Source: a virus
Reading direction: 5' to 3' (one strand)
DNA: 64,000 bases
Virus record (IMG/VR): IMGVR_UViG_3300027969_000050
Span: 32,001-96,000 of that record
Positions within the stretch are counted from its first letter, which is position 1. Every line of letters starts with the position of its first letter. Shown here piece by piece: positions 20,005-62,477 of the stretch. A model generated the notes under the pieces. The model made no database searches and was not told the DNA's origin. It worked only from the letters and a program-made list of their open reading frames with translations. The translations under genes and the position numbers were made by a program.

Positions 20005-21507
20005 CTACCGGTTCGCCAAATTGATGTTGGCGATGTGGGCCGTCGTTACGTCAGGCGGCTGTTGAGGATTCGGCGCATAGCGTAAAATCCAGTCCCGCGA
20101 TGGAATTTCTTTTTTGATCTCTTGGAAGGAAATCGCATCATCCGCGCTCAGTCCGTAATCGGTGCGGGTCAAGCCACGCTCGATTTCTTCCGCCGCGCCG
20201 GGAAATTCGTATTGATACGGAAGCCGGTGAACCCCGTCAGTATCGTAGGCATACTGGTCGTCATGGGTAAAGAAATGCCACGGCGTTACCGGACTCTCGA
20301 CGTATTCGCCATTGACTACATCGCGGGACGGCACGTCTACATAATGCATTCCAATACTAAGCTCAGGGTAGGCTTGCTGATGTGCAATAGCCCATTCCAA
20401 GCAACTTCCGAACATCCCATTCTCGGCTTCGTCCTCTGACGGCACCCATCGAGCGCCCAGCACATAGGAAGATTCACGAGGAGAAAGCTTCGCTAGGGGC
20501 TTATCCCAAGCGCCAGCCTTTTCTTGAATGCTTAGGTCGCCCACAACTGGCAGTCCAATGTCGGACGGATGCATGTATTGAGGAGGCGTTGGATTTCCTT
20601 GGTAGTCTTGGTAGGGTCCCACATATTGGAACCTATGACCATTAGGCTTATACGGCTTGCGAGTAGATCGAATAACGAAAACAGGAAGGGAGGTCAGGCC
20701 CAACTGTTCCGCAATTCCGACTCGGTGATTCCCTTCTGAAACGTGTGCCTCTCCAGTTAGTTCATTGAACTCAACCACGACCGGTTCCTGAACACCATTC
20801 TGGGCGATACTGTCCTTTAGTTCATCTATGGCGACACTGTCCTTCAGTGCATCTACGTCCTCTCCGAAACGGTCGTACTCGAGAAGTTCTGTCAGCAATT
20901 GAGTGGGAACGTATCCGGTAAATTCCTCCAAAAAAGCAGTCTTTTTTTGGGAAGCCTGAATTCCCGGCTTCATCTCCCTGATGCTGGACTGGTCAATTGG
21001 GTCGCTGGCCCAGTCGGCTCCTTCTCCCCAAGACAAGCACTTACAGCTTTCGTAAAGCTCGTCACATTCGGGGCAGACATGCGGGTCCTTGTCTAGGCGA
21101 CCAAACTTTGCCGTTCCAAGAAAAGAAGTCAAGGCGTCAGAGATCTGCTTCTGATCCTTTTCCGAACAGTTCCACCCTCGGGCCGTCGGAATGTTTACGT
21201 CGCCAGTGACCCGAGAAACGTGACCCCGATGAATTGGCCCAATGAGATCCCCGTCAATGGCTTGCATTATTTGTGCGTGCAAGCTTCCCGGGGGCGCTAA
21301 AAATATTTTTCTTGCGCCCATGTCAACGAGGAAAGGCGTCGTTTCGGGCTGAAAATTTTCATCATCGTCAACGTCAACCCATTGGATCTCGTATTTTGGC
21401 TCGTTAGGAGCGACAGAGTTTGGAAAGTTTCCGGGCTGAATAGACTTGCCGGAGTCCCCGTCCTCGCCCCAGTCCGAATCATAAGCATCAGAAAGACGCC
21501 GGTACAT
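20005..21507 (-). CDS. multidomain protein: repeat-family domain + Cys knuckle + ParB/Srx-like domain + putative Cys-His-Asp domain
   Basis: ELKDSIAQNGVQEPVVV..VSEGNHRVGIAEQLGLTSLPV (ParB-N); CPEC..CKC; GSCLEWA..WHFF..YDTDG. Confidence 0.75.
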   Translation of the reverse strand: MYRRLSDAYDSDWGEDGDSGKSIQPGNFPNSVAPNEPKYEIQWVDVDDDENFQPETTPFLVDMGARKIFLAPPGSLHAQIMQAIDGDLIGPIHRGHVSRVTGDVNIPTARGWNCSEKDQKQISDALTSFLGTAKFGRLDKDPHVCPECDELYESCKCLSWGEGADWASDPIDQSSIREMKPGIQASQKKTAFLEEFTGYVPTQLLTELLEYDRFGEDVDALKDSVAIDELKDSIAQNGVQEPVVVEFNELTGEAHVSEGNHRVGIAEQLGLTSLPVFVIRSTRKPYKPNGHRFQYVGPYQDYQGNPTPPQYMHPSDIGLPVVGDLSIQEKAGAWDKPLAKLSPRESSYVLGARWVPSEDEAENGMFGSCLEWAIAHQQAYPELSIGMHYVDVPSRDVVNGEYVESPVTPWHFFTHDDQYAYDTDGVHRLPYQYEFPGAAEEIERGLTRTDYGLSADDAISFQEIKKEIPSRDWILRYAPNPQQPPDVTTAHIANINLANR

Positions 21508-21509
21508 AA

Positions 21510-22331
21510 CTACGTTTTAATAATGTAGTTAAGGGCTAGGGAGGGCTGCATGTTTGGATGCGAGCCGCCGTCCCCAGTGTAATCAGTAAATCCGGTAACG
21601 GAGTGGCGATGGTCAGCGTTTTGCGGAGCGGTCCCGCCGCTGTGATTGTGGGCTGCTGGGCCGTTAGCCCCTACATCTAGGTACCCTCGCTCGAATGGTC
21701 CAACGCTCGTTCCGCCTGCAAACTTTGCGGTTCCGGCTGTACGATAAACGCCGCCAGAGCCGCCTTGATTATTCAAAGAGTGAGTATGACTCAAAGACTG
21801 GTTTTCGGTCCCCGTAGTAAAGCTGTGGGCGTGGTCGGTATCTTGGATCCCAGTTCCAAGCGTGGTACCACTGTGACGATGAGATGGGATCTGCGCTGTC
21901 GTCAGCGTATGGGATTCCGTACCAAACACGCTGGCAAGGGTTCTTGCGGTTAAGCCAGATCCGGTTCCAACTCCAACAATAGCGCGGCCCCGAAGGTCGG
22001 GAAGCGTGAAACTTCCGCCGGAGCCGCCGTATGTATAGGCGACAACAGCGAATAGGTCGGCGTAGGTCGTAGTTGATACGCTTGCACCATCACAGAGCAG
22101 ATATCCAGTTGGAGACGAGCTGCCAGCGTAGGGAAGGATTACTCCGGTGATTCCCGTGCCAGCAGCGCCAGTTGGTCCGGTAGCTCCTGTCGGTCCTCCT
22201 GAAGGCCCCGTTGGTCCTGTTGATCCGGTAGGTCCGGTGGATCCAACTGACCCTGTCGGGCCTGTTGGGCCTGTTATTCCTGTTGGTCCGGTGGGTCCTG
22301 TTTGTCCGGCCTTACGAGTAAGGCTAGTCAT
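21510..22331 (-). CDS. collagen-repeat tail-collar fibre protein
   Basis: N-terminal GPT triplets, [17 protein letters not shown] collar, several H-x-[17 protein letters not shown]. Confidence 0.9.
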
Positions 22332-36420: not shown

Positions 36421-38259
36421 CTAAGAGGGATCCTCGACGGGACTAGCCTCATCAGGCTCAAAGGTCCTTTGATTGAACAGCCCCTCGTTCTCAACGTGAG
36501 AACTTGAATCGCCTCCGCACAAAGGACAGTTCCATTGGCGATACTCCGCAGGGGGACAATTGCGACTACGACCGTGATGCATTTTCTCGTTCCAGCCGGA
36601 GGTCTTCTCATCACTGCCGCCATTAATTTTGTGGTACATCGAGTTGGCCCAAGAGCGACCAGCATCGCCACCCCAGAGAAGCCAAGCGGTCTTCCACGGA
36701 GAGTTGCCCTTCCCTCCATCATCGGGACGAGTCTTGTCATGCCGCTCAAAGAAAGAATGCATCCTCTGAATGTGATCGGAAGTAAGAGGCTTGCCATCAG
36801 CAATCGAATGAGCGCGAGTCACAGTTGCCGACTCAAGTCCGTCTCCAGCCTCCCCTTGATTGACTAGCTCAATACCACGCCGAGCATTAGATCGCGCTCC
36901 TGATGGGGCAACATAGGAAGCTCCAAATTTAAATTCATTGGCTGGCCGATAGCCTTTGCCCGACAAAAATTTTTCAATCGCCGTTGCCTCAACGGCAACA
37001 TCGCCTTGATCGCTTTCGATGTTGTGCTTGCGAAAGAACTCCAAAGGCGAATCATTGAGATCATAGCGAGAAGGCCGAAAGGACTCGGGATGTTCATCCG
37101 GGTTCATGCCAGTCATCTGCTTGATCGAATCCGCCATTTCTAAATGATAACCCTTTTCACGTCCGATGAAAATGGTCTTTGATTTGCCATCATCAAAAAT
37201 CCAGATTGGCCAATCGCCCTCCTCCGGAAAGACTTCGCTGTGATCTCCATGCACATCCTCAACGCCTGTCAGATCGACAACTTGAACGCTCAATGGCGGA
37301 ACCTCATCTTTTGCCCCTCGCTGCATACGATCATTCCAGTCCCGAGGCCAAAGGTCCTCATCATTTAGCTCGTCTTCATTCCAAGCCGATCCCGGCTCCT
37401 CAGGAAGGAGTGTGCGATCTGCAATCGGTATGGTCCCGAGGCTCCTTGGCTCGGTTCCCCTTGGCCGGTCATCAAGCGGATAAGCCCCAGCAATTTCGGT
37501 CTCTCGTTCAACAGCGTTGTTTACGTCTGGCACGGTTTGGCTTGGACCCTTGGGTTTCCTTGTTTCAACTCCATTTTGACCAAGAAGCCTTTGAATCGTG
37601 GGATAGCTGACATTAAACTCGCGTCCAATGGCCCTAAGAGACGCCCCACCTTCGTACATCTCTTTCACCTTGGCTATGGCCTCTGGAGTTTGAAGAGCGG
37701 CTGCCTCCGGAGGAATTTGAGGCCTGAGTTCATTTCCCTCATCGGTAAGAACTCTTCTAACGGTCTCCCCGGCAACTCCAAGCTCGCGTCCAATCTCCTT
37801 TACGGATTTTCCGCCCTCGTACATCTCTTGAACTTCCCTAAGCATTCCTCGAATCTTGTCAGCGTGACCTTTGGTGGGCGGTTGAATGCCACCACCAAAT
37901 TTCATACGCTCGTTCCAGCTCGATTGACGACCCGGCATATAAAACCCTTGTTCGACGCCCCAGCCATCATCGTCAAGTTGAAGCCAATCGAACCGCATAA
38001 AAAATTCTCGGTTCTCGATCTCATTGACAAATAACGTCTTGCCAGTCTGATCGGAGTACGCCTTTAGAGCAAGCATGAATTCGGAACCCAATCCGGATCC
38101 CTTTTCTAAGGCGTGAAGATTGTCAAGATGAACGCTATCCGAATCCTCACGAAGCGCGAACTCGATGTTGCCACTGCGCGTCTCCAATTGAAGCCCCGAA
38201 AATTCGCTGTTAGAAACAACGCCTCCCAATTGCTGGGCTATGAAATCTTGAACCTGCAT
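36421..38259 (-). CDS. multidomain protein: GNAT-like + 2x HTH + repeat-family domain + head-associated WGGD domain + Zn ribbon
   Basis: EKGSGLGSEFM; two EMYEGG-x-S..IGRE HTH repeats; RMHSFFERH..AWLLWGGDAGRSWA; CPLCGG; start placed at ATG 38259. Confidence 0.72.
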   Translation of the reverse strand: MQVQDFIAQQLGGVVSNSEFSGLQLETRSGNIEFALREDSDSVHLDNLHALEKGSGLGSEFMLALKAYSDQTGKTLFVNEIENREFFMRFDWLQLDDDGWGVEQGFYMPGRQSSWNERMKFGGGIQPPTKGHADKIRGMLREVQEMYEGGKSVKEIGRELGVAGETVRRVLTDEGNELRPQIPPEAAALQTPEAIAKVKEMYEGGASLRAIGREFNVSYPTIQRLLGQNGVETRKPKGPSQTVPDVNNAVERETEIAGAYPLDDRPRGTEPRSLGTIPIADRTLLPEEPGSAWNEDELNDEDLWPRDWNDRMQRGAKDEVPPLSVQVVDLTGVEDVHGDHSEVFPEEGDWPIWIFDDGKSKTIFIGREKGYHLEMADSIKQMTGMNPDEHPESFRPSRYDLNDSPLEFFRKHNIESDQGDVAVEATAIEKFLSGKGYRPANEFKFGASYVAPSGARSNARRGIELVNQGEAGDGLESATVTRAHSIADGKPLTSDHIQRMHSFFERHDKTRPDDGGKGNSPWKTAWLLWGGDAGRSWANSMYHKINGGSDEKTSGWNEKMHHGRSRNCPPAEYRQWNCPLCGGDSSSHVENEGLFNQRTFEPDEASPVEDPS

Positions 38260-38333
38260 ATTATTTAACCCCCAGCAAGGGGACCCAACTAAGCAAAAGA
38301 CGGGACTCCTAAAGGGGACCCAAAGGGACCCGC

Positions 38334-38645
38334 TTACATCAAGCCGAGAGTACGACCCGCCGAGAGCCAACCGTGTTCGCACACGCCATCAGCTTCAACG
38401 TAACATCCTTCAGGACAATCCGTCAAGCCCATCGTGTCTTCCAACTCATGAGGAGCATATCCGTATTCAATATCTGATTGAAGTTCCGCCGCCGCATTTG
38501 GAGAAGGTTTCTCGCCTTGGCCGGTGGTGGGCTTAGAACCGGGAGGGCTAGGAATGTGATCGGGATGAACCCAACCGGGCTGCTCACCCTGTTGAGCGAT
38601 CTTCATTTCAGCCAGCATATCTTTAGATGTCGTAAGTTTCTTCAT
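38334..38645 (-). CDS. hypothetical protein with Cys/His cluster
   Basis: CPEGCYVEADGVCEHGWLS. Confidence 0.65.
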   Translation of the reverse strand: MKKLTTSKDMLAEMKIAQQGEQPGWVHPDHIPSPPGSKPTTGQGEKPSPNAAAELQSDIEYGYAPHELEDTMGLTDCPEGCYVEADGVCEHGWLSAGRTLGLM

Positions 38646-42462: not shown

Positions 42463-42467
42463 CGGCG

Positions 42468-45563: not shown

Positions 45564-45598
45564 CGCAGCGCCTGATCCCTCAGACCGAGCAGCAAACC

Positions 45599-46597: not shown

Positions 46598-46651
46598 TAA
46601 TCATACACTCATCGTCATCCCGACCTGAGTGGGAAATAACTTTGCCCGTCG

Positions 46652-46676
46652 TTCCGTCCGACCTCTTTGCTATACT
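46652..46676 (+). promoter_or_regulatory. TTCCGTCCGA-box promoter, copy 8
   Basis: TTCCGTCCGA-N9-TATACT, then AGGAGG and ATG 46708. Confidence 0.85.
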
Positions 46677-46707
46677 GTGACTCACAGCAACTATCAGGAG
46701 GATTACG

Positions 46708-46941
46708 ATGTACCTAGTGACGATGAAGGACGGAAGCACAGAGCAGATCAAGTTCTTTGACGGCGGCGGCTGCTTCATTGGCGGCGGCGGCTACAACGTT
46801 GCCTGCTACGACGAGCAGGGCAACTTCTGTGAGATTCCACAGGCCGAGATCCTTTCGGTCGTGGACGAGAGCGGCGAGGTCTATACCGACTTCGGCAACA
46901 ACCTCTTTGACGGACACCCTTACCCAAAGGCGGTGGCGTAA
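46708..46941 (+). CDS. hypothetical early protein
   Basis: AGGAGG SD. Confidence 0.75.
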   Translation: MYLVTMKDGSTEQIKFFDGGGCFIGGGGYNVACYDEQGNFCEIPQAEILSVVDESGEVYTDFGNNLFDGHPYPKAVA

Positions 46942-47558: not shown

Positions 47559-47719
47559 CCTGTCCAGAGTGCGAACACGACGAAGTAATCGAGAGCGAGG
47601 TCGAGAGCGACCTGTGCGAGTGCCTGATCTGTGGCCTTGAGTTCGCCCTCAAACCGGCGTCGCCGGACAATGACAACGGCTGGGTAACGGCTGCCCCTAC
47701 TGTCTGGGTAGGCTCGTAA
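47555..47719 (+). CDS. small Zn-ribbon protein
   Basis: MTCPEC..CLICG; ATGA overlap. Confidence 0.65.
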   Translation: MTCPECEHDEVIESEVESDLCECLICGLEFALKPASPDNDNGWVTAAPTVWVGS

Positions 47720-48039
47720 TGACCTTCATCTTTGGAAAGTCAGAGCGTGGCTTTGGATGCGACACTCCGGTTAGGCTGAGGCCTGTCAAACCGGACGGCA
47801 GCCGGAAGTGGCATCTAGTTGTGGAGGACGAGGACGGCACAGCGGCCAGCGGCGCGGCCAGACGATCCATCTGCGGCGTGAATTGTAACCAAAACGGGGA
47901 GATCCAACGTCAGGAGGAATTGGCCGATTCGCTTAGGCACACCGGCTACCTGCTCAGCGAGGATCTCAGCAGGATCCCGCCAAAACAGATCTGTGCGAGT
48001 TGTGTTGGCAGAGAAGGCGTAAAAGTGGAGGCCGAATGA
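47719..48039 (+). CDS. Zn-binding hypothetical protein (PVK..KWH family, copy 3)
   Basis: LRPVKPDGSRKWHLV..CGVNC..CASC. Confidence 0.75.
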   Translation: MTFIFGKSERGFGCDTPVRLRPVKPDGSRKWHLVVEDEDGTAASGAARRSICGVNCNQNGEIQRQEELADSLRHTGYLLSEDLSRIPPKQICASCVGREGVKVEAE

Positions 48040-49774: not shown

Positions 49775-51235
49775 TCACAAACCGCTTTCTTTCCAGTCGA
49801 ACACGCCTGACGTTCTTCCCAAAGCCAAATTGAGAAGTTTGTCTCGTTCGTTGATCGAAGGATCGCCAATCACCTGACCCATAAGGCTCTCAAGAATTTG
49901 TCCGATCTCTGGGCCTCGAGGAACGCCAGCCTCAATTAAATCTTGGCCGTTGATTGCCAACTGAGAAAGATCAGTCGGCTGCTGCTGCTGGCGCACTTGA
50001 TCCACAAGGCCGCGCTGAACCTCGTACTCGTTGTCATCAAACGCATCTTGCCCTTCGCCCTTCGCCGCTTGATCAGCCCAGCGCAGGTTCAGCAGATCAT
50101 CTGCGTGCGGCTCGACCCGATTTAAAAATTTTCTTGCGCCCTTCTCCGAGTCAAACGGGGCAAACATATGGTGCTTTACGAGGTCCGAAACCCGATCAGT
50201 CCTGTCCTTCGGGTACCTCAAACGGGTCATTGCGTCCCTAGTCATTTCCTCACCGACGAGTTCGTGTTGCTGACCTATTGTGCTTCCGTCAGGCAGGCGC
50301 TTCTGGTAGTAATGGTTTGTTCCTCGCTCTGGATTCACCCAAGCGGATGCGGGCTTGCCAATATCGTGGAGCAAACCGGCCAAACGGGCATCTGGGTCAT
50401 CAGTTTTCTGACTGATTCGGTCAAGCACGTCAAGCATATGCTCGCCAAGTTCTAAAGCGTGGTGCGGATTGTTCTGGTCGTAGCCGAACGTTGCATCGAC
50501 CTCAGGCAAAATATATTTAAGTACGCCGCTGTCGTGGGCCAAACGGATGGCGCCGACTGGGTCGTCCGAAGAAAAAATTTTATCCAGCTCTGCTTGCACT
50601 CTTTCGGCTGGGAGATGTTGGAGGCTTGCTGCCGCCTCAGCCATTTGGGCAATCGTTCCCTCGTCAGGGTGAAGGCCATGCCGACCCTTAGCCACAAGCG
50701 CCCTAGCAACCCTGAGCGGATCCTCGCTTAGCGACTGGTCGTGGATTGTTCTTAGTCGCCCACCTGCGATGTCCTCAGCGCCATTGTGCGGATCAATAAG
50801 TTCGCCCGTTCCTAGATTGACGGCCATCGCATTCGCTGTGAAGTCACGCCTCAAAAGATCTTCTTCAGGCGAAAGGGTGTGGTCGGCATCAACAGAAAAA
50901 TCCGTGTGCTTGTCGCCAGTTGACTGTTCGTGGCGAGGCAGCGCGATCTCGACCTCCTCACCGCCCTGCTTGTAACGAAAGACGCCAAAATCTTTTCCTG
51001 TGTAATCAATGTCTCCACCCAGTGGAGCTAAAACCGAATCAATATTTTCTTTTGGAATACCAGAGACCATGAGGTCAATGTCCTTCGGGGTCTTGCCCAT
51101 GATCGTGTCCCGGACCGCGCCTCCAACTGCGTAAACCTGCCCACCAGCAGCCATAAGCGCTTCAACAACGGGCTGAATAACAGGATTGCTTGCGACAATT
51201 TGCCTTACCGACTGTCCCACATTGTCCTCAGCGGC
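49775..51235 (-). other. cca: class II tRNA nucleotidyltransferase (CCA-adding / polyA polymerase family) + HD domain, within the large ORF
   Basis: YAVGGAVRD, KDIDL, EDLLRRDFTANAMA, EDPLRVAR, ERVQAELDK, QNNPHH..HM, LLHDIGK, LAINGQDLI..GPEIGQIL. Confidence 0.92.
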
Positions 51236-54200
51236 TCCGAAGTGAAACTCGTCTCCGCCCTGACCTCGCGCCCTTCCACGGAGGCCTCCGCCCGGTTGTA
51301 GGTCCGGCTGACCCAAGGCGCGATTGATCATTTCCACCTGATCGGGGGTTGGGTTTCCATAAAAACTGATCTTCTGATCCTCTCTTGGCGGACCCGAGGC
51401 GTGACTATTCGGGGGCCAAGTTACTCGACCACTGAGAAAGGTTCCTTCCTGAAGGGCTTTCATCCAGAAAGTGATTGCGCTGGCGCCATCCCCATTCAAA
51501 AATTTATTTCTGAATTCGGAATCCTGCGAGAGCATCTCGTAGTGATAGCCACCGGGCGGTCCAAAATAAACGGCGTTGTCCTCCGGGAGATAGAACCAAG
51601 GGGCGTCTAGTTCAGGACTCTTGTGAACTTCGTTGGGCTGGAACTTGATGTAAACGACTTTTGGAGGATTCAGTTCGTCAAATGCCCCGAAACGAAAATC
51701 TTCTTCTTGCTCATCCAGAACCTCATCCGCAGGAAAAATATTTCTTAGGGCGTCGTTGACTCCCGGAGCCGGTTCCGTCAGACCTTGATTGTCGGAGTTT
51801 GGAAACGAATCTTCCCAACTAAAATTACCTGAATTTTGCCAATACTCGCCTCTGCAAGGATCGCCCGCCGCAATCAAATTTTCTCCAACGTTCTCAGAGA
51901 GTCCCATAGGACGACCCACCCTTGGAATATCAAACTCGTTTATAAGGTCCTCGTGATACTGACCGCGAAGGCCAACGTAAAGCGCATTGGCGGAAGGCCA
52001 ATAGATAAACGGAATTCGGTTTTCGTGGTAGTCCATTCCTTTCCTATTGTGTTCTTCATTCTGAGATATGAAAACCGTGACGCCTTGCCTAGTTCTATAG
52101 GTGCCAGCGGCTCCGAAACGGAAGCCCTCATCTTCTTGAGCCGGATCAGAAAAAATATTTATTAGCGCGTCGTTGAGTCCTGCTTCTGGTTCGGTGCCTT
52201 CATCGTTGAACCACTGAAGGGAGTCGTAGCTTGGTGGAATAAAACTTCCGTCACCCGGAACGCGGCGCCAATACTCGCCGTGTGTGTCAGGCCCAAAACC
52301 GCCGCGTAAATCGAAATCGGCTTCCGTCCAAGCCCCCCGAATGTCGAATTCTTCTACAAGGTCGTCGTGATACTGGCCAAAGACGCCAACATAGAGCGCG
52401 TTATTGACAGGGCAATAAATAAATGGCGCCCTGTCCTTGTTGAAAACCCTATGTTCATCTGGATCTTGTGATATCAAAACATCGGTGCCAAACTCAGTGG
52501 CCGCCCCGAAATGAAAGTCTTCAGGGCTTTCGCTTTGCCTCAAATCATCTAGATCAGCAAGCGGATAGTCGGGCAAACCAAGCGCTTCGCAGATGGCTGG
52601 AGCCAATGCCGCCGCCTCTGGGTTATTGGGATCAACAAAGTCGGGCATCAGGCGGTCAAACCTCGTCCAAAAAGAAAATCTTGGCGCGTCCTCGAGTCCG
52701 GCCTCCCTAAGAGCTTTTTCAATGATCACATGATGGATGTCGGGAACCGAGCCAATCCAAATTTGTCCCTGCTCAGGCAAAACAATTAGGGAGTAGCCTC
52801 CAAGCTCATCTCCTTCCCTAGGAATAATTATTCCTTTGTTCGCACGGCCCGTGCCGACAACTCGACCATCATCATCAAGCCAAACGGGAGTTAATTCTGT
52901 CGAGGATCCAAAGTGGAATTCTGAGGCTCCTCCGCCAACAAGGCCATTCAAAGCAGTAATCATTTCCGCTTGGACGCTTTCGGGGACTCGGCTGCCATAA
53001 AACACCAAGTCATTTGGCGGCGAGAACCTTCCAAAGAAATCATAAGACCCGTACTGATTGACGACGCCTCTAGGAAGCTTATTTGTCATTTCGTTATGAA
53101 AGCCGTCTTCCCTTCCAATAGCAATGCTCCATCCATCGTGCCGCGTCGCGTCAGGGTTCATCTCGAGATAGCGCCGTTCTTCTTCGGCTGGGACGCCGAA
53201 CCGCTCTTCGATGTTTATGTCTAGGGTTCCTTCGTCCCAAGCAACAACAGGGTAAAGCTTGTCCATACCTGCACTCGGATAAGGGGTACTCTCCAAATAT
53301 TCTCCGTGGCTTGGATAATCGGGATCCGCCTTGGCGCCCCTGAGGTCAAGCAGCTCGACATGGCTTAAGATGGCTCGAGATTTTTTCTTTGCGCCCTCAT
53401 CATCTCCTTGGCCTTCTTCGCTAAGATTTTTTAATTCTGAGATGTCGGTTGGCTCTTCAGGAATGATCATTGGTCCGCCCATTGATTTGGGGCAAGGACC
53501 GGGCTTGTGATTGAAGCCGCATTCCTCACAGGCACCAAATTTTAAATCCTCTTCGTCAAGCTCAACACGCACTTGTTCGCTCTTACGACGGAACTTATCA
53601 AGCACCTTTTGGATGCGCGAAGTTGACTTTTTTCCTCCAGAGAGAAAATCGGAGTTCCGGATACCACTTTCATTTTCATTTTCGAACGAATTCACCCAGT
53701 TTCTAAGGATATTTGCGAAGATCGGGGCGTCAAGTTCATCATCTTTGGCAAATGCGTTTGCCTGACTATCGGCAGGTTGGGCAGGTTGCGTATCAGAGAA
53801 GGAAAAGTCAGGATCCCCAAGGAAATGATCAACAATTCCCTCGCCTCCTTGCGGATCAAACGCCTCCCAGCCTGTTCCAAAGGGCTTGTTGTCTGCTCCG
53901 AACTTAAAATCTTCTTGCTCCCACTGCTGGCTAATGTCAAGATTGTCGATAAAGGCCTTGATATTAGAGGGGATCGGCTGTTCATCATAAGGCGGGCGCA
54001 TCCAATCAACCGGACCAAATTGACTTTTCCTTCCTTCCCACGCAGCTCCGTCGATTGCGCCCAAAGTCAAATGCGAGTCCCAAGTGGTTCCAACTTGAAC
54101 CGTGTTGCTTTTTGGCCAATAAATAATCGGACAGTCGCCTCGAGGATCGGGCGCACCGCCGCCGGTTGATTCAAAGACGACCTTTGGCTCCTCTGAAGCG

Positions 54201-56248
54201 CCAAATTTAAAATCTTTGGGCGTTCCAAAGAACTCATCAAGCTTTGCTTCGCAAGCAGCCTTCTCTGATTCGGATAAATTTTCCAGACCAGACCCCCACA
54301 GTTCGCCATCGTATCGGCACTGAGCAACAAAAGTAAGATCTTTGTTTACATCCACCGCTCTGTTAGGAATGTCTGAGTGGTAGGCCCCTTCAGCTCCGAT
54401 ATACATATTGATTAGGCTTGCTGGCGCCCATTCGGAACTTTGGTCCAACAAGGCATAAATATAAACTGGGTGGGACACGCCACCACCCTCATCATCATGT
54501 TCAGATCCGTAGTCGGATTCCTTGATTAGATCGATGACATTGATCTCTGGTTGCTCTGCCGCTCCAAACTTAAACCCGGGAGTGGTACCCAAAAATTCAT
54601 CCAGACTATTTTGAATGTCTTCACGAAGCATGGGATCACCATCAGCAATAAAATCGCGTCCATGAGGATAACGCAGAAGAGGCAAAGTTGAGATATCCAC
54701 CCCATCAATCTCTGCTCGTTTTGCGACCTCACGGAATTTCGGATCCCCCATAATTTCTTCGTGATAGCCATTTGGCCTACCGACGAAAACTTCGTATTTT
54801 ATATCGCCCTCCCAAGGATGTCCTACCGGAACAATTATTATTGGCCAATCGGTTCCACCGGTATCGATTCTTTCGTTGTGGTCTCCGTGAAGGTCACGGA
54901 CTCCAGTCAGGTCAACCACCTCAACAAAATTAGGAAGCGAGCCGCCTTCGTCTTCTAAGACCGAACCGAACTTAAACCCGGGATCCGTACCCAAAAACTC
55001 GTCCAGATCCTTTTGGATGTTTTCCGGGACGTATTGGCGTCCAGACGGGTAGCGACTGTAGCCGACCTCTTCGTACCACTTCCGTGAAAAGACATCAGAA
55101 CCGGACATGCGTTTTTCGAACTCGGGATCCTCTTCTATTTCAGTATGGAAGCCGTTTTCTCTGCCAACAAAGACGGTCCAGCGATTTCCTACTGGAACAA
55201 TAATTATTGGCCAGTCAAAGGATCTAGGTTGCTTGCTTGGTTCGTCCCCGACTTCAGAAATAAAAGCGTCGTGGCCACCGAAGCGATCATCCATTTCGGT
55301 TAGGTCGATGATCTCGACATCCTCATTAGAACCGAATTTAAAATCGTCTTGAACTCCGAGGGCCGACTTTACCGCTGAATCAAATTCGACTGTCCATCCA
55401 TCGGGGTACCCCCGGCCAGCGGAGCCATACTCATGCTCGCTGCCCAAAAGCATCCACTGGGTAATTGCATCGTTTACACGAAATAAAGCAACTTGATCAC
55501 CGTAAAAACGATCAACATACCTTGCTCCTCCGGGAGAGGCGATGCCACGCGCAGTAAGTACCGTCATCACATCTTCATGGAAATCATCATAACTTCCAAT
55601 AAAAGCCCTTGTCTCCGTCGGGCCTAAGATTGCTATTCCGGGTCGATCTCCGGTTCCATGCGAACCGTTAAGATTTGCGTCGTTGGCGTCTGAGGTATCA
55701 AGGATTTCTACTGAGACTGGGACGGTCTCGATCTGTGAGCGCAACCTGCCATCAGAACCAAATTTAAAATCTTCTTGTGCGGGACCCATTACTGGCGCCA
55801 CTCGCTGTAATTCTGACTTGACTGCTGATTCAAATTCGGGAGGTGGACGTGGAATTTCCACAGTGTCCGTCCAATCACTGGAATTGTTCCCGTACCAATC
55901 CTCAATAGTTCCATCAGGATAAACCCGGAAACAAACAACCGGGCCAAGATCGGAAGAGAAAGCGCGAAAGTCTCCCGGCTGTTGGGTCAGAATTCCCTGA
56001 GCTTCCAATATGGCAATTAAGTCATAATGAAATGCTTGATATTCGCCAATGAAAACCTTTATCTCCGTCGGGGCAAAGATCGCTACTCCGGGGCGGTCTC
56101 CGGTGTCGTGCGTTTGCCACGAGTCATAATGCCTTGACTCTGAGGTGTCGAGAACCTCAACTGAAATTGGAAGCGAGTAATTCAGAACCCGCGTCACACC
56201 GTCAATGTTGGTCCAGCCGTCATTGTCAAATTCGGTTAGGTCGTCCAC
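49775..56248 (-). CDS. 2157-aa putative polyprotein: 12 FxFG-delimited modules + C-terminal CCA-adding-type enzyme with HD domain
   Basis: 12 F/L-[KHR]-F-G-[AS] motifs spaced 101-209 aa apart; C-terminal 486 aa is a class II nucleotidyltransferase. Confidence 0.88.
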   Translation of the reverse strand: MDDLTEFDNDGWTNIDGVTRVLNYSLPISVEVLDTSESRHYDSWQTHDTGDRPGVAIFAPTEIKVFIGEYQAFHYDLIAILEAQGILTQQPGDFRAFSSDLGPVVCFRVYPDGTIEDWYGNNSSDWTDTVEIPRPPPEFESAVKSELQRVAPVMGPAQEDFKFGSDGRLRSQIETVPVSVEILDTSDANDANLNGSHGTGDRPGIAILGPTETRAFIGSYDDFHEDVMTVLTARGIASPGGARYVDRFYGDQVALFRVNDAITQWMLLGSEHEYGSAGRGYPDGWTVEFDSAVKSALGVQDDFKFGSNEDVEIIDLTEMDDRFGGHDAFISEVGDEPSKQPRSFDWPIIIVPVGNRWTVFVGRENGFHTEIEEDPEFEKRMSGSDVFSRKWYEEVGYSRYPSGRQYVPENIQKDLDEFLGTDPGFKFGSVLEDEGGSLPNFVEVVDLTGVRDLHGDHNERIDTGGTDWPIIIVPVGHPWEGDIKYEVFVGRPNGYHEEIMGDPKFREVAKRAEIDGVDISTLPLLRYPHGRDFIADGDPMLREDIQNSLDEFLGTTPGFKFGAAEQPEINVIDLIKESDYGSEHDDEGGGVSHPVYIYALLDQSSEWAPASLINMYIGAEGAYHSDIPNRAVDVNKDLTFVAQCRYDGELWGSGLENLSESEKAACEAKLDEFFGTPKDFKFGASEEPKVVFESTGGGAPDPRGDCPIIYWPKSNTVQVGTTWDSHLTLGAIDGAAWEGRKSQFGPVDWMRPPYDEQPIPSNIKAFIDNLDISQQWEQEDFKFGADNKPFGTGWEAFDPQGGEGIVDHFLGDPDFSFSDTQPAQPADSQANAFAKDDELDAPIFANILRNWVNSFENENESGIRNSDFLSGGKKSTSRIQKVLDKFRRKSEQVRVELDEEDLKFGACEECGFNHKPGPCPKSMGGPMIIPEEPTDISELKNLSEEGQGDDEGAKKKSRAILSHVELLDLRGAKADPDYPSHGEYLESTPYPSAGMDKLYPVVAWDEGTLDINIEERFGVPAEEERRYLEMNPDATRHDGWSIAIGREDGFHNEMTNKLPRGVVNQYGSYDFFGRFSPPNDLVFYGSRVPESVQAEMITALNGLVGGGASEFHFGSSTELTPVWLDDDGRVVGTGRANKGIIIPREGDELGGYSLIVLPEQGQIWIGSVPDIHHVIIEKALREAGLEDAPRFSFWTRFDRLMPDFVDPNNPEAAALAPAICEALGLPDYPLADLDDLRQSESPEDFHFGAATEFGTDVLISQDPDEHRVFNKDRAPFIYCPVNNALYVGVFGQYHDDLVEEFDIRGAWTEADFDLRGGFGPDTHGEYWRRVPGDGSFIPPSYDSLQWFNDEGTEPEAGLNDALINIFSDPAQEDEGFRFGAAGTYRTRQGVTVFISQNEEHNRKGMDYHENRIPFIYWPSANALYVGLRGQYHEDLINEFDIPRVGRPMGLSENVGENLIAAGDPCRGEYWQNSGNFSWEDSFPNSDNQGLTEPAPGVNDALRNIFPADEVLDEQEEDFRFGAFDELNPPKVVYIKFQPNEVHKSPELDAPWFYLPEDNAVYFGPPGGYHYEMLSQDSEFRNKFLNGDGASAITFWMKALQEGTFLSGRVTWPPNSHASGPPREDQKISFYGNPTPDQVEMINRALGQPDLQPGGGLRGRARGQGGDEFHFGAAEDNVGQSVRQIVASNPVIQPVVEALMAAGGQVYAVGGAVRDTIMGKTPKDIDLMVSGIPKENIDSVLAPLGGDIDYTGKDFGVFRYKQGGEEVEIALPRHEQSTGDKHTDFSVDADHTLSPEEDLLRRDFTANAMAVNLGTGELIDPHNGAEDIAGGRLRTIHDQSLSEDPLRVARALVAKGRHGLHPDEGTIAQMAEAAASLQHLPAERVQAELDKIFSSDDPVGAIRLAHDSGVLKYILPEVDATFGYDQNNPHHALELGEHMLDVLDRISQKTDDPDARLAGLLHDIGKPASAWVNPERGTNHYYQKRLPDGSTIGQQHELVGEEMTRDAMTRLRYPKDRTDRVSDLVKHHMFAPFDSEKGARKFLNRVEPHADDLLNLRWADQAAKGEGQDAFDDNEYEVQRGLVDQVRQQQQPTDLSQLAINGQDLIEAGVPRGPEIGQILESLMGQVIGDPSINERDKLLNLALGRTSGVFDWKESGL

Positions 56249-56722: not shown

Positions 56723-58174
56723 CTAGCGCGGCCCCATAAACGGATCGCTGATGTCTGGTCTAGGGGCAAGCTGACTGGACGGCAAAATGCACTCTACGAA
56801 GTGAGGCTGAAGCTCGCCTGACTGATGAAGCGGGAAGTGAACAGTCACCCAGTCTAGGGTGGGGTCGTAAGAAAAAACTTTTCCAACCGAGTTAGGGCCA
56901 ACCAGAACCATCTCGCCGGTACCGTTCCCCGGCGCCCCACCAACAGCAGCGCCATACTCGCCATTCCAATTCTGAGCATCTCGTGGCGGAAGGAGCTGAA
57001 CGACATCCTCCTGATTAAATATTTTTTCTCCCGCCGCAGTCCGAACATGCGTGTAGGTTTTTCCAAGAACCCTTGACAAGGCACCCGGCATATGAATATT
57101 TCGCCCGCCAGTTTGGTCATCGGCCTTGGGTTGAGAGAACGGAAGCTCTAGTTGTTCTCCGGGCTGTCCGGGCTGATCTGGGATAACGTCAAACTGGTCG
57201 CTAGGGTTAGCCATAGGATTAGTGCTTTGTCCCTGACCGCGACTTGGAGACGGCTTGGGAACCTGAGCAGGCTGGCCCGTAAGCTGCTCTGGAGCGCCAT
57301 TAGGCTTGCCAGAGGGGGCGGAAGGGGCAGACGGGGCGGAAGGTCCTGCGGGACCCATAGAAGGTCCAGTGGGCGAGGTAGGAGCCGAGGGGGCGCCCGG
57401 AGCAGCGCCACCCGACCCTCCGCCATCGATCTCTTCCTTATCAACGCCCTTCGGAACACCACCGCCTGTTCCGACCTCATTTGTTGGGCCGCCTCCACCG
57501 GGAGCCTGACCGACGCCCTTATCGAACAACTGACCCTGCTGTACAGGCTGGGTTTTCTTCATTCCACGAGGCATCTGACCGTGGATATTGGGGTCGTAAT
57601 CGTCAATTGGCGTAGCCATTGCCTGCCACATAGTTGCGATAACGTGAGAGCAAGAGCGGCCTTCTAGATACTTCCACTTACGGGTACGTTGAAATGCGTA
57701 CTGATCCCAAGGACACTCGCAAGTCCACTGAGTAATCGCCATTGAGTTTGGGTCGTCACGACTGATCGTACACTCGTACTCGCCGTGATCGCCAGTGACA
57801 TTTGAGACGACGACATTCCAGCCATTCCGGAGGATCGTCACCTGACCATTATTTTTTAGACGGACGGCTTTGGCTTTGACGTCATCCCAAGTTGCCGTTC
57901 TAGAATTATCGAAAAGGGTGAAATGCGCCCTGCGATAACCAAATGGCTTTAGATCCTCGTAAACGATCTGCTCAGCAAGATGGCGATCATCATGGGATCC
58001 GCCCTCAGACATAATTACTGCCTGCCCTGCCGGACCTTCCCACCAGCTAACCCTAGTTGAGCCAAGGGTTTGGAACTTAGGCGGCAGGTCTTTTGGCTGA
58101 GAACCTATTGCTAGGCCGACATAATCTTCGAACCAAGTCTTTTCTTCTTGGGCGGTAAGGACGCTCCAAGACAT
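56723..58174 (-). CDS. SWIM Zn-finger protein with Pro/Gly-rich linker
   Basis: WTCECPW..GRSCSHV (CxC..CxH). Confidence 0.8.
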   Translation of the reverse strand: MSWSVLTAQEEKTWFEDYVGLAIGSQPKDLPPKFQTLGSTRVSWWEGPAGQAVIMSEGGSHDDRHLAEQIVYEDLKPFGYRRAHFTLFDNSRTATWDDVKAKAVRLKNNGQVTILRNGWNVVVSNVTGDHGEYECTISRDDPNSMAITQWTCECPWDQYAFQRTRKWKYLEGRSCSHVIATMWQAMATPIDDYDPNIHGQMPRGMKKTQPVQQGQLFDKGVGQAPGGGGPTNEVGTGGGVPKGVDKEEIDGGGSGGAAPGAPSAPTSPTGPSMGPAGPSAPSAPSAPSGKPNGAPEQLTGQPAQVPKPSPSRGQGQSTNPMANPSDQFDVIPDQPGQPGEQLELPFSQPKADDQTGGRNIHMPGALSRVLGKTYTHVRTAAGEKIFNQEDVVQLLPPRDAQNWNGEYGAAVGGAPGNGTGEMVLVGPNSVGKVFSYDPTLDWVTVHFPLHQSGELQPHFVECILPSSQLAPRPDISDPFMGPR

Positions 58175-58176: not shown

Positions 58177-59733
58177 TTATGAAATAATGCCGTACTTCTT
58201 GAGGTCTTGAATGAGTGAGTTGAGCGTGACCCTAAGCGCATCAACATTGTCGTTTGTAGCTGTCATGGTGGATGAAAGACTACCATTTTTAATTCCGAAG
58301 CCGGAAGCTGCGTTTGTATACGATCCAACGTAACTTGGTAGGGTGGTAAGCGTAAGCCCACCTAAACCATTGTTACCGACGCTTTTAACTCCGGTTGCGG
58401 CAGCAAACACGACACCGTAAGATAATGAAACGGTGGCGTTAGCGCTGGCGGCTCCGGTAGCGCTCTGGCTCATTGTGATCGTGTAAGGGTTGCTTCCGCT
58501 AACAGCGGTAATAACCGCCGTATTCTGCTCGACAAGAGTGCTTCCGCCAGAGACGACAGAGACGCCCTGACCGACGATTGGCGCGGTGGCCGTCGTCAAT
58601 CCAGTTACCTGATCGAAGGCTGGGCTGGTAATAGACCCGCCAGTGATTGTTTGCGAAGAGGCTAGGGCGGAATACGTTACTTCGTATGACTGATCTTGGC
58701 ATTGTGCTTCGCCTGAAGCAAATCCCGAGTTTGATCCGGGATCAATCTCTGGTCCGCCGACAGTAAATGTGGTTGAGGTAACGGAAGAGATCGTAAACTC
58801 TCCGTTATAAGAAAGATTTACGGCACCCGAGATAATGACGCGAGAGCCAACAGTTAGAGAATGAGCTGCCGAGGCCGTAAAGGTGTAATCATAGGTGTTC
58901 GGAGAGACACTACTGTTTAGCGTCCTTGTGGCAGAAGTAATTGAAAGCGTTTGATCCGGGCGGACGGTAATAATTCCGCTGGTAGGGAATCCTGAAAGGC
59001 TCGACTGAGCCGCCAGAACTCGAGTCCCAGACCCGGCGATGTAAGGGAAAGCTGTAAAGCTTGACGAGTATCCGTTCGTCTCCGTGTTGCCGGACACCGT
59101 AAGCTCGGTGCCGCCGCTGTCATTTGCCGTTGCCGTGATCACAACGTTCTCACCAAACTTAATTGAGTCGTTTCCGAGAGTGACTCCGGCACGAGTGAAG
59201 GTTCCGCTATCAACGTTACCCGCCACAGCTTCGAAATACTGGGTGGCGTCTAAGTTTAGACCAGAAATTTTAATTACATATTGGCCCTCGTCAAGCCATC
59301 CTTCAATCCGTCCATAGGCATCAGTCTTAAGCGACGTGATTGGCGTAATGTTCGTCGGGTTGGAGTACAAATAAATTAGCGACTGAGAAAGAGGAACCTT
59401 GACTGCTGTTCCGCCAGAGATAACCGGAATGTCTGGTCCGCTAGTGCCTCCTACCAAAGAAAACGAGCTGGTCGTTGGGATGGCGGTAATGGCCGCTCCG
59501 GTTACGTTGTAGGCTGGAATCGATGATCCCGTGACGGTGATGAGATTTCCAACAGCCAAATTGTGCGGATAATCCGTCACATATGTGTAGGTTACGCTTG
59601 ATGCGCTTGCCGATGACAGGCCGTAAACGTTGCCTCCAGCGTCATAATCTGCGCGCTTAAAGACGGAGACGTCGGCACCCTCGACAGGGCGACCTTTCTT
59701 ATTCAGAACGACAAATGGAATTTCAACGCGCAT
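58177..59733 (-). CDS. Ser/Thr-rich virion appendage / head-fibre-like protein
   Basis: two H-x-L-x-VG..I/V-x-G..YN beta modules; C-terminal LNSLIQDLKKYGII. Confidence 0.7.
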   Translation of the reverse strand: MRVEIPFVVLNKKGRPVEGADVSVFKRADYDAGGNVYGLSSASASSVTYTYVTDYPHNLAVGNLITVTGSSIPAYNVTGAAITAIPTTSSFSLVGGTSGPDIPVISGGTAVKVPLSQSLIYLYSNPTNITPITSLKTDAYGRIEGWLDEGQYVIKISGLNLDATQYFEAVAGNVDSGTFTRAGVTLGNDSIKFGENVVITATANDSGGTELTVSGNTETNGYSSSFTAFPYIAGSGTRVLAAQSSLSGFPTSGIITVRPDQTLSITSATRTLNSSVSPNTYDYTFTASAAHSLTVGSRVIISGAVNLSYNGEFTISSVTSTTFTVGGPEIDPGSNSGFASGEAQCQDQSYEVTYSALASSQTITGGSITSPAFDQVTGLTTATAPIVGQGVSVVSGGSTLVEQNTAVITAVSGSNPYTITMSQSATGAASANATVSLSYGVVFAAATGVKSVGNNGLGGLTLTTLPSYVGSYTNAASGFGIKNGSLSSTMTATNDNVDALRVTLNSLIQDLKKYGIIS

Positions 59734-60484
59734 CAGTCTTTACGTCCTTGATTAGCCCTGAATAGTTGGTCTTGGCGATGTATTCGCCAGTAGACTCGCT
59801 GATCTGATCTAGCAGGCCTCGATTGGCCAGCATCTTGTAGACAAGATTGGACGGAGCGAAGTCGCCCTTGCCTGCTCTCTGGTCAATCCGACGGCGCTTA
59901 TGGATCTGGTGCCAAAAGGTCTTGGCCTTGTAAGGCTCGTAACGCAGTAGGCGCTCCATTTTGTCAGCCTGCTCTAGCGCGTAGGTGTAAGCGGAGTTAT
60001 AAATTACCTCTGGATCCCTAGCCATTTCGCGGTCAGGAGGATTAACCCACTCGTCATTGAGAATCTCGTAGCCCGAACGCAGCCCCTTCTTATAGAGATC
60101 GGTTGGCAAAACGCCCTCTGGCACAATAAATACCTGAAGGGGATGAGTGGTCATCGGAAGAATGCTTCCGTCCAACTGCTCAACTGCGATGCCAATCATC
60201 TCGGCCCTTGACCACTCAGGAAAAATTTCTGAGTTGACGAACAAGGAGATGTCAAAATCGCTGTCTTCCGAGTACTGGTAGGTCGTGAGGCTGCCAGTGA
60301 CGTAAAGGCTGCCCCAGTTCTGGACATCGTAGCCATGCTCGTTAAACCTGTCAAAGACAAGCTTCTCAACCCACGTTTTATGCTCAAATTTCAGCGTTGG
60401 CTTGACGGATACCGACCCGTCCCAGACCGTAGGGTCTAGCGTTTCATTGATCGGATCGAGAATATTAGACTTCTTAGGCTTCAT
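59723..60484 (-). CDS. Pol-beta-superfamily nucleotidyltransferase (phage type)
   Basis: VTGSLTTYQYSEDSDFD (GS..DxD) and GDFAPSNLVYKML. Confidence 0.8.
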   Translation of the reverse strand: MKPKKSNILDPINETLDPTVWDGSVSVKPTLKFEHKTWVEKLVFDRFNEHGYDVQNWGSLYVTGSLTTYQYSEDSDFDISLFVNSEIFPEWSRAEMIGIAVEQLDGSILPMTTHPLQVFIVPEGVLPTDLYKKGLRSGYEILNDEWVNPPDREMARDPEVIYNSAYTYALEQADKMERLLRYEPYKAKTFWHQIHKRRRIDQRAGKGDFAPSNLVYKMLANRGLLDQISESTGEYIAKTNYSGLIKDVKTDAR

Positions 60485-62477
60485 AGCGTCCGTCCCTCAG
60501 ATCAACGCGATCCTCCACGATCTCCTTGGCGTCCTCGACAATAAAAATTTTAAGCACGGATGACCTCGAGTCCCTCCTCCAAGTAAAAGCCCCTTGATCA
60601 AGGCCAATCAGGTTTAGCTCACCGAGTCCCTCGAGCGTCCGGCGGACTAATTTTTTATTTTTTGAGACAACCTTGAACATGTCTGGAGTTGGAACTTCTC
60701 CTTGCTTTGCCACCTTGAGGGCGTTGCCAACAGCAAAAACCTCGCATCCAGCGGTCAATAAGGCCGAAGTTACGGCCTCTACGTCAGAATTGCTCAAAGA
60801 CCCAATGAAAACAAGGCTGCCTGTGTTTGCAAGCTTCGTCGTTCCGCCATTAATATTTTGCAGCTCCACTGAGTTGACCTTCAGCTCAGGATGCTGGTAA
60901 TACCAGAGGCGAATCAGGTGACGCACTGTGTAGGGGATCGTCGTCGTAGATTTAATTAGGAGCTTTTTAGAGTCGTAAACGCCTTGAACCGTGTTCTCAT
61001 AGCCAGAATCTACCGAGAGATCAGCAACCTGCATGCCCGGATCCCCAACAACAATCGAGTCATCCTCAACGTCGTAAATAAAAGGAATGGGCAGGGCGAC
61101 TGGGTCTACCGCCGACATAAAAGTGATTTCGCCCACTCCTTGAGGCTGTCTCGGGGTGAAATGCGGATTAAAAGTAGCGTCTGGATCAGTGTTAGGGAAG
61201 TGATCGTTCATGACTAGCGTGTCGGATTCGGCCTCGCGGTGCTTAATGAACTCGTGCCACGATGGAAGGAGCTGCTCGCATTCAGGACATTGATAGAGGC
61301 CATTAATTCTTTTTGGGTCCGAAAGTCCAATGGACCCATTTTGCTGTCCGGCGATTGCGCTTTCCTCTGCTGCGGTGTCGTTGAAGAACTGGCCGTCATC
61401 ATTGGCCGGATTTGGGTTTGAAAAGTTGTGTTCTTCCAAATCCTCGATGCGCTTTACAACGTTGTCATTGCCAGCCAGAACAAACTTCAAATTGTTGTCA
61501 TCGGCGTATTCGTTCAGTGCGGACAGAAGCTTAACCCCAAAAATTTTATTTGGGAGCTGGATGTCATCTCCTTCAACCTTGAGAGTCCCAACCGTCATTT
61601 GCCCCGAAAGACGGGTCGCAATCTTGGACCAGTCCTGCTTATGCGAGATTAGGCACTCGTCTCCTTGCTGAACAAAATAAAGATAAGAAGTCTTTGAGGC
61701 CACTTCATGGCCCTCCATGTTGGAAAGGCCGCTCCAAGAAAGACCAACGGAGTTGCAGTACTGCTTCAGGACATCCGAGAGCGCATTGAGGCCAATATTT
61801 GTTTCGACCTCCCATGATGCATTGTCATCCGGGTCAATTTTTAGCGTCCCAACTGCAATTGGCCCCGAAGTTTCGGGGTTTACTAGGCTTTCGAGCGGTT
61901 TGTCATCGACGATGAGCTGCCCATCCGCATAAGAAAAATTTAATTTCTTCGGTTCACGCATGTCGTGGTCCATGTACGACCGATCAATGTGATCTCGATT
62001 GTCCTGAGCCTGAGGTTCCTCAGCAGGAAGGGCGTCACCGGCATAATCCATTGAGACGCGAGCAAAGTGATTGAGGTTCTTGAAAATATTTTCTGCTCGA
62101 TCAGCGAAACGCTCACTCCTCTCGGTGGCCTTTGGACGAACAACATCTAGTCCTCGGTAAAGGGGGTGCGACATGGACTTGTAGATGATGTACTTGTACC
62201 GGTCGCAGGTCAGGTCAATTACATATTTTTTGTCGGACGAGACCCAGACGTAGTGGCCATTGTCCTCGCCAATAAAGCCGCCAAGACGGCGCGTAAGCCA
62301 GAATGAGGTGACGTAGCACTGGCCTTTAGAGGCGTCCTGATCTCCACTGAACTCGGGGTGGCGGGTGTCGTCGTTCCACGCTTTTTCTGCGGCAGACTTA
62401 AGGGCGTGTAACTCGCCCTGAGAAATTGACTTAGGATCGAAGGTCAAAACGGCATCTCCGAATTGGGATCTTCCCAA
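60474..62477 (-). CDS. multidomain protein: YunG/transglutaminase-like C-H-D domain, C2H2-like finger, degenerate repeat-family domain, degenerate CCA-head-like domain
   Basis: KGQCYVTS..HYVW..VIDLT; YQCPECEQLL..FIKH; IPFIYDVEDDSIVVGDPG; ALLTAGCEVFAVGNAL. Confidence 0.7.
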   Translation of the reverse strand: MGRSQFGDAVLTFDPKSISQGELHALKSAAEKAWNDDTRHPEFSGDQDASKGQCYVTSFWLTRRLGGFIGEDNGHYVWVSSDKKYVIDLTCDRYKYIIYKSMSHPLYRGLDVVRPKATERSERFADRAENIFKNLNHFARVSMDYAGDALPAEEPQAQDNRDHIDRSYMDHDMREPKKLNFSYADGQLIVDDKPLESLVNPETSGPIAVGTLKIDPDDNASWEVETNIGLNALSDVLKQYCNSVGLSWSGLSNMEGHEVASKTSYLYFVQQGDECLISHKQDWSKIATRLSGQMTVGTLKVEGDDIQLPNKIFGVKLLSALNEYADDNNLKFVLAGNDNVVKRIEDLEEHNFSNPNPANDDGQFFNDTAAEESAIAGQQNGSIGLSDPKRINGLYQCPECEQLLPSWHEFIKHREAESDTLVMNDHFPNTDPDATFNPHFTPRQPQGVGEITFMSAVDPVALPIPFIYDVEDDSIVVGDPGMQVADLSVDSGYENTVQGVYDSKKLLIKSTTTIPYTVRHLIRLWYYQHPELKVNSVELQNINGGTTKLANTGSLVFIGSLSNSDVEAVTSALLTAGCEVFAVGNALKVAKQGEVPTPDMFKVVSKNKKLVRRTLEGLGELNLIGLDQGAFTWRRDSRSSVLKIFIVEDAKEIVEDRVDLRDGRYEA

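Follow-up and report, generated by a model that had tools for sequence, protein, structure and literature searches.

A tandemly repeated acidic domain and its boundary peptide in multidomain proteins of a large uncultivated phage

The stretch of DNA considered here is a 64,000-nucleotide window, bases 32001-96000 of a 140,266-bp virus record in IMG/VR (IMGVR_UViG_3300027969_000050) that is estimated to be 87% complete; positions below are those of the window unless marked as genome positions. One major feature is a giant open reading frame (ORF) on the minus strand (P0001, 2157 amino acids (aa), 49775..56248), which encodes 11 copies of an acidic domain with an invariant histidine (the His-module), one non-module spacer and a C-terminal CCA-adding enzyme. 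In addition, three other minus-strand genes carry a copy or variant of the same domain joined to different partners: P0002 (36421-38382), P0003 (20005-21507) and P0004 (60474-62477). P-numbers above P0004 (P0005, P0006, P0014, P0046 and others) denote metagenomic proteins of the module family. Among 50,697 GenBank phages, megablast found no near relative of this phage, and none of them has a helicase more than 34% identical to its own; a search for relatives of the module loci in viral contigs and metagenome contigs found none.

Cutting P0001 at its recurrent F[KRH]FG[AS] motif yields 11 homologous units of 101-150 aa, plus the spacer and the CCA-adding enzyme. The array bounded in this way occupies 51233..56188 and runs along the minus strand from M1 (55754-56188) through M2 (55328-55753), M3 (54962-55327), M4 (54560-54961), M5 (54197-54559) and M6 (53894-54196) to a spacer with a Zn-knuckle (53327-53893), and then on through M7 (52904-53326), M8 (52502-52903), M9 (52109-52501), M10 (51683-52108) and M11 (51233-51682). 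Only one Gly, one His and the FxFG end are invariant across the alignment of the 11 modules, with a Pro nearly so. The paralogous modules are 20-50% identical around this fixed core, and every one is acidic, with a net charge of -6 to -19 and an isoelectric point (pI) of 4.1-5.1.

The array is followed by a CCA-adding tRNA nucleotidyltransferase with an HD domain (49775..51232, minus strand), in which the GGxVRD and DxD motifs are present. Pfam recognizes PolyA_pol, PolyA_pol_RNAbd, HD and tRNA_NucTran2_2 in aa 1705-2141, and the class II CCA-enzyme matches (1e-23, 6e-14 and 5e-8) are all above cut-offs. The NCBIfam equivalog CCA models also match the C-terminus of P0001, with scores below cut-off, so that the exact specificity may be CCA- or A-adding. 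This part of the protein is 99% identical to that of P0005. The phage carries three tRNA genes outside the window (Lys-UUU, Leu-UAA and Asn-GUU; genome 114449-115470), none with an encoded 3' CCA, which would be consistent with a functional phage CCA-adding enzyme.

The three remaining module genes are all on the minus strand. P0002 (653 aa, 36421..38382) comprises an N-terminal domain, two helix-turn-helix (HTH) motifs, a His-module, a head-interior domain and a Zn-ribbon. Its module (aa 352-490, 36913..37329) ends in FKFGA and is 52% identical to module 4 of P0001 over 63 aa, and the domain directly after it (aa 489-595, 36598..36918) matches PHROG 2859 at 3e-15. P0003 (500 aa, 20005..21507) has a His-module, a Zn-knuckle, a ParB/Srx-like domain and a C-terminal domain. 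The module (aa 46-137, 21097..21372) keeps the His and ends in AKFG, and the ParB-like region (aa 191-327) and C-terminal domain (aa 338-486) together occupy 20050..20937. P0004 (667 aa, 60474..62477) begins with a YunG-like region and, after a middle region, ends with a His-less module variant (aa 459-555, 60813..61103) and a degenerate CCA-enzyme head (aa 551-637, 60567..60827). The His-less block is kept in P0046 (aa 552-649; phmmer 6e-20). The degenerate head, from which the RD and DxD motifs are absent, matches P0001 aa 1676-1761 (BLASTP E 2e-6), and phmmer also matches it to the CCA head of P0046.

An initial annotation of this DNA had described the cargo joined to these modules as GNAT/HTH, ParB, a C-H-D domain and CCA. 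The HTH and CCA assignments hold. ParB also holds as a putative and weak assignment, all of its scores being below curated cut-offs yet consistent with one another (Pfam ParB_N 5e-4, 20.4 bits with a cutoff of 26.3; PHROG ParB families 3e-6; NCBIfam parB_part 2e-4; PDB ParB/sulfiredoxin, E 0.2-0.3). The C-H-D domain corresponds to a sub-threshold YunG match (6e-5). The supposed GNAT domain of P0002 has no Pfam match at E <= 0.01 and no PDB sequence match; the candidate is a motif-A-like GxGxG string seen by eye and nothing more.

Several smaller features of these proteins were also recorded. The tandem HTH pair of P0002 (37543-37845) matches the NCBIfam model of the CRISPR repeat-binding protein Cbp1 at 2e-16, far below that model's cut-off. 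P0002 also has three copies of a WN[DE][KR]M plus basic-x-G string at its domain junctions (aa 156, 349 and 597); WNE[KR]M was considered as a boundary motif of the whole family and rejected, being present only in P0002, nowhere else in the genome and, in this form, in no other family protein. Each of P0001-P0004 contains a Cys-rich knuckle or ribbon (CPEC-type, CxxC...CxxC; approximate positions 53500-53545, 21030-21075, 36500-36570 and 61230-61290), three of the four shortly after a KFG-type or similar junction motif, and similar knuckles are found in family proteins.

Are the four segments really copies of one domain? The initial annotation argued so from short strings, which are indeed found at their places in the translations, and the shared domain is confirmed across the genes; the string in P0003, said to lie at the start of the protein, actually begins at aa 58. 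It also suggested a search of the whole phage proteome with a module hidden Markov model (HMM), and such a search recovers P0002, P0003 and, weakly, P0004. When the model was built from the 11 repeats of P0001 alone, it matched P0002 over the full model (E 6.2e-10) and no ORF beyond P0002 among all 1729 six-frame ORFs of this genome. Searched with a profile, a set of 1.84 billion representative proteins yielded 120 family proteins, mostly 1000-4900 aa long and with 2-13 copies each. The enriched HMM, rebuilt from 389 module instances in these 120 metagenomic proteins, gave E values of 1.2e-15 for P0002 and 2.3e-6 for P0003 (aa 46-133). Local hhalign likewise joined the N-terminus of P0003 to the family (probability 86%, E 5e-6), with reversed and shuffled controls all at E >= 0.07.

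The P0004 segment is the one for which a short chance motif might be suspected, leaving only two extra genes with the module: it lacks the invariant His, and the enriched HMM scored it at just E 0.018, over 20 residues of the core hairpin only (the next ORF scored E 5.4). However, a two-sequence profile of this segment and its P0046 orthologue matched the family in hhalign with a probability of 92% and E 7e-7, while 10 column shuffles of that profile gave E >= 0.19, and the P0046 segment itself scores 1.4e-4. Moreover, the segment lies directly upstream of the degenerate CCA head, in the same way that the active head of P0001 comes right after module 11, so that the His-less motif is in the expected place, and P0004 is here collinear with a fused relative. 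We therefore consider a chance resemblance unlikely, and since the His-less form is kept in two phages, it would be a subtype rather than a product of decay. By these comparisons, all four segments belong to a single domain family, whose members are about 100-140 aa long. A tree from a quick search, with many unresolved forks, pairs the P0003 module with one module of P0046 and places the origin of each module type before these phages.

The initial annotation also proposed a mix-and-match module system, and the support for it is now stronger than was visible at that stage, coming from cargo fusions elsewhere and from insertions and deletions (indels) of whole modules. P0046 (2163 aa) unites in one chain a P0004-like N-terminus, the His-less module, five His-modules, a P0003-like ParB region and a full CCA enzyme, such that the YunG-like N-terminus, ParB and CCA enzyme of separate genes in this phage are fused there. 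BLASTP and phmmer place the P0003 ParB region inside eight module proteins (P0101, P0106, P0050, P0014, P0031, P0046, P0074 and P0069) and its C-terminal domain inside three (P0014, P0074 and P0005). Three module-free genes of this phage are fused to modules in other phages: a 253-aa gene (59723..60484, minus strand), whose domain is joined to a His-module in P0123 and P0091 (BLASTP 3e-47 and 2e-15; also phmmer); a 937-aa gene (9426..12239, minus strand), which has homology to the N-terminal regions of P0103 and P0055, both of which carry modules (BLASTP 6e-175 and 1e-81); and part of an 871-aa gene. The closest relative of P0001 is P0005. In P0005 and P0006 the orthologous modules are 92-99% identical to those of P0001, and the differences consist of the absence of M2, M4 and M6 and the presence of an extra module or an inserted cargo domain like the P0003 C-terminus; P0006 has no CCA enzyme and retains the same C-terminal tail. 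These comparisons show that modules and enzyme or DNA-binding domains are swapped as cassettes, from gene to gene within one phage and also from phage to phage.

The conserved core of the family reads RRPFIYxPxxNxVYVGxPGxYHxDL. The His is present in 99% of module copies, the Gly in 95% and the Pro in 87%; a D or E follows the His by two residues in 67%, and the hairpin has Asn or Asp in 58%. An AlphaFold model from a 37-row alignment predicts four strands and a helix that starts at the invariant His; beyond this core, a variable loop leads to a second helix, and the acidic tail is unstructured. Confidence is moderate, with a predicted local distance difference test (pLDDT) of 68 overall and about 88-91 in the core (aa 1-60); a model from a 12-row alignment (pLDDT 59.8) was too weak for use. 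The module was unmatched by Pfam, PHROGs and NCBIfam in the four phage proteins and by Pfam and PHROGs in 25 family members. A PDB sequence profile search returned only chance matches to ERGIC-53 (E 0.25), Foldseek against PDB and BFVD and a wide VIA-align search with the better model found no match (best Z 2.8), and the ESM Atlas gave no usable lead. The products P0039, P0006, P0003 and P0004 had no tblastn match in the 50,697 GenBank phages, where the module is unseen at BLAST sensitivity. As judged from these sequence searches, the module is an undescribed domain family, nearly confined to large multi-copy proteins of uncultivated large phages.

A second conserved element is the short acidic aromatic peptide that closes the modules, often with G[AS] following. 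An acidic run plus [WF]xF[GSA] occurs 275 times in the family, compared to 33 +/- 6 times in shuffles, and the residue after the Phe is Gly in about 40% of family motifs. In P0001 the peptide is found at every module boundary and also after non-module segments. It likewise closes a second, unrelated-looking kind of module, called 'GKG' (228 copies in 59 proteins), for which this genome gave no significant match (best E 0.095). It forms the C-terminus of 37 of the 120 family proteins versus 4.8% of random windows; 12 proteins stop precisely at the last aromatic position, and others run one or two residues past it. The codons of the peptide vary synonymously, and for this reason a DNA-level recombination signal at the module boundaries was rejected: the constraint acts on the peptide and not on the DNA, and the peptide would therefore be a linear signal. 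It is unstructured in the AlphaFold model, and docking and cleavage are the obvious candidates for its role. Elsewhere in the genome, a 626-aa head-region ORF (L008:7074-8954) has a weak 'GKG'-like stretch (E 0.095) and an acidic F-L-F-G-L-L tail, and a 441-aa ORF between portal and terminase (L009:8481-9806) ends in D-D-I-L-F-G; these tails may be the same terminal signal, in a number near that expected by chance.

What do the modules do? The initial annotation suggested that the domain is a capsid-loading or ejection handle for the attached enzymes, which is unproven and has been weakened by what the family looks like. A simple enzyme tag fits poorly: a protein may hold as many as 13 tandem copies, 36 of the 120 family members are at least 75% modules and have no recognisable enzyme, and homologues of the cargo are encoded without a module in this very genome. 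The explanation that we put forward instead, at about even chances, is that these are polyvalent, head-carried proteins which enter the host along with the DNA. The module would then be neither an enzyme nor a mere tag for the adjoining enzyme; rather, the acidic module and the disordered acidic linker after it, which closes with [WF]xF(G), would make up a repeatable structural or delivery unit, strung like beads of 15 kDa or less, with the aromatic peptide as a docking or processing signal. Functions delivered in this way would include the repair of tRNA CCA ends, a nuclease or NTPase of ParB type, and DNA binding by HTH domains.

Head association of the module proteins is plausible from gene position and from the homology of flanking domains. 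The large terminase (genome 105845-107893) and portal (genome 99867-102101) genes are on the minus strand, and the block of module genes starts 5.4 kb downstream of the portal on the same strand. After the portal come a phosphoesterase, a deoxynucleoside monophosphate (dNMP) kinase and small ORFs, and then a tight, partly overlapping run of genes for products of 354 aa, P0004, 253 aa, 518 aa and 483 aa. P0001 is next, after a 474-bp gap; it has a promoter-like site of its own and ends at a terminator-like site. The P0003 gene abuts a tail-fibre-like gene (21510-22331), starting 2 nt after its end. With regard to flanking domains, the one directly after the P0002 module has tblastn matches in 38 cultured-phage records. 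Depending on the phage, it is the N-terminal part of S78 protease-capsid fusions encoded beside the portal (Pfam S78 plus Phage_capsid), the N-terminal part of a coiled-coil protein at the scaffold position, or a small gene of its own that lies between those for portal and capsid. In Roseobacter phage CRP-811 gene 45 and Synechococcus phage S-CBS1 gp04 (PHROG 2859), the N-terminus is 33-40% identical to P0002 aa 489-595 and is fused to an S78 protease and HK97-type capsid protein, whereas the P0002 copy comes after a His-module, within a multidomain DNA-binding protein whose gene is distant from that of the capsid. In addition, aa 65-212 of the 483-aa product, whose gene (56723..58174, minus strand) separates the giant ORF from the remainder of the block, match proteins of cluster-C-type mycobacteriophages and, in Rhodococcus phage Finch, the gene that comes after the portal.

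A number of points weigh against head-carried delivery. The dNMP kinase and phosphoesterase interspersed between the portal and the giant ORF are non-structural, and together with the promoter-like site of P0001 itself they make co-expression with the head genes uncertain. MuF, portal and zincin peptidase domains, which are common in polyvalent proteins and not obligatory there, are absent from the four proteins and 25 family members as searched with Pfam and PHROGs. Very acidic proteins would be unusual companions of DNA in a capsid, and the invariant His, often followed at a distance of two residues by D or E, might be part of a catalytic or metal-binding site. Finally, the structural model of the module is of limited overall confidence, as given above, and the family members are all metagenomic, hence no virion proteome exists for them.

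Other features of the neighbourhood can be noted briefly. The genome has four paralogous tail-fibre-like genes (2161-4663 and 21510-22331) with a near-identical C-terminal end, LN[FY]IIK[TL], and the one that stands apart is directly upstream of the ParB-module gene. The 354-aa product (62444-63508) has an acidic stretch and M-P-F at its C-terminus, which recalls the C-terminal tail of single-stranded DNA-binding protein (SSB), and it has no family match. A plus-strand block at 40001-48000, which includes one ATPase-like and one HNH-like gene, has a G+C content of 0.57-0.62 versus about 0.50 and a strong positive AT skew.

Among known systems, the closest parallels are with the polyvalent proteins of phages and conjugative elements, for which delivery with the DNA has been predicted (Iyer, Burroughs, Anand, de Souza, Aravind 2017; PMC5512222). 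Such polypeptides combine 2-15 effector-type domains, as do the proteins of this phage, whose sets are modules with CCA nucleotidyltransferase and HD, two HTH with a module and PHROG 2859, and a module with a ParB-like and a C-terminal domain. Pol-beta-type nucleotidyltransferase, HNH, HTH and, as a putative assignment here, ParB are common to both groups. Also shared are the setting, a portal-terminase phage with a late or virion gene context, and the mosaicism, seen here as fusion, fission and module indels relative to P0046, P0005, P0006, P0123 and P0103. The family differs in that its commonest part is an undescribed tandem module, with a second, 'GKG' module in relatives, and in its conserved acidic aromatic boundary peptide and its many members without a recognisable enzyme.

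Head-internal proteins of well-studied phages offer a further comparison. In phage T4, the capsid-targeting sequence of the internal proteins (IPs) and Alt is one N-terminal peptide of about 10 aa, with cleavage after Glu by the prohead protease, and phiKZ and SPN3US have paralogue families of inner-body proteins that enter the head, undergo processing by the prohead protease and are ejected. The likeness to these sets lies in the paralogous proteins and in the short conserved peptides that direct loading or cleavage there. Unlike the T4 signal, however, the module is a folded domain of 100-140 aa, internal or C-terminal, with up to 11 copies in this phage, and the peptide is aromatic and C-terminal to each unit. 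Polymorphic toxins such as CdiA and Rhs have demarcation motifs (VENN, DPxGL) at the cassette junction, which in Rhs is also a cleavage site; these bacterial secretion substrates carry one variable C-terminal toxin per protein. A short conserved peptide at cassette junctions is thus a shared property, but here there are many junctions per protein, and the context is a phage.

If the boundary peptide is a cleavage site, the proteins could be polyproteins, cut at [WF]xF/G by a phage or host protease into about 12 small proteins plus free enzymes, each with an acidic aromatic tail. The distribution of the peptide over every boundary of the giant ORF, over non-module segments and over two different kinds of module is in keeping with this, as are the proteins that end at or just beyond the last aromatic residue. 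Moreover, the gene of a relative stops right after module 11, where P0001 runs on into the CCA enzyme, and an 840-aa ORF of the genome (genome 23609-26131) has a head-protease-like region. However, no protease of such specificity was identified, Gly follows the Phe in only that minority of motifs, and an uncleaved docking motif accounts equally for the data. We regard polyprotein cleavage as possible, and it is compatible with head-carried delivery rather than exclusive of it.

Alternatively, the modules may be the effectors themselves, a diversified array of small acidic domains that bind targets or act as decoys (such as inhibitors akin to DNA mimics, directed at host nucleases or other defences), with the enzymes as occasional passengers. 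Such a role would suit the proteins that are nearly all modules, the divergence of paralogous modules around a fixed core, their negative charge, and a copy number that differs between near relatives. On the other hand, the entire phage proteome is acidic (median pI 5.3), the near-identity of orthologous modules in near relatives means that rapid substitution is not seen, and the module resembles no known inhibitor or DNA mimic by PDB profile, Foldseek or VIA-align, all of which leaves this explanation rather doubtful. Very unlikely is an enzyme or metal-binding domain (for example, a degenerate beta-beta-alpha His-metal finger) repeated to raise local activity: the nearly universal His, the frequent acidic residue and hairpin Asn or Asp, and a predicted hairpin-plus-helix core do recall the His-Me finger/HNH nucleases, in which the catalytic His is at a strand end of a beta-beta-alpha fold and the helix provides a metal ligand, but only one residue is invariant and other candidate ligands are not conserved, the His-less subtype is kept across two phages, 11-13 tandem catalytic copies would be unusual, and Foldseek and VIA-align find no fold match to nucleases.

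Returning to the delivery of head-carried proteins, one can tentatively imagine a more general and so far unseen 'grammar' in large uncultivated phages, in which two kinds of acidic module and various enzymes are arranged on acidic linkers, with [WF]xF(G) as the docking or cleavage signal. Perhaps cleavage leaves WxF-COOH tails that resemble PDZ-ligand or SSB-tail peptides, and any enzyme cassette, such as the CCA tRNA-repair enzyme, could be loaded and injected.

The module and its peptide would add a new domain family, and with it a new kind of boundary signal, to what is known of the dark matter in large phage genomes, and would provide a concrete rule by which large phages build and swap multi-enzyme proteins. 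Should the aromatic peptide indeed act in loading or processing, it could become a tool with which proteins of choice are packaged into phage heads. And if the CCA-adding enzyme is delivered by the virion, it would add pre-made tRNA repair to the injected counter-defences.

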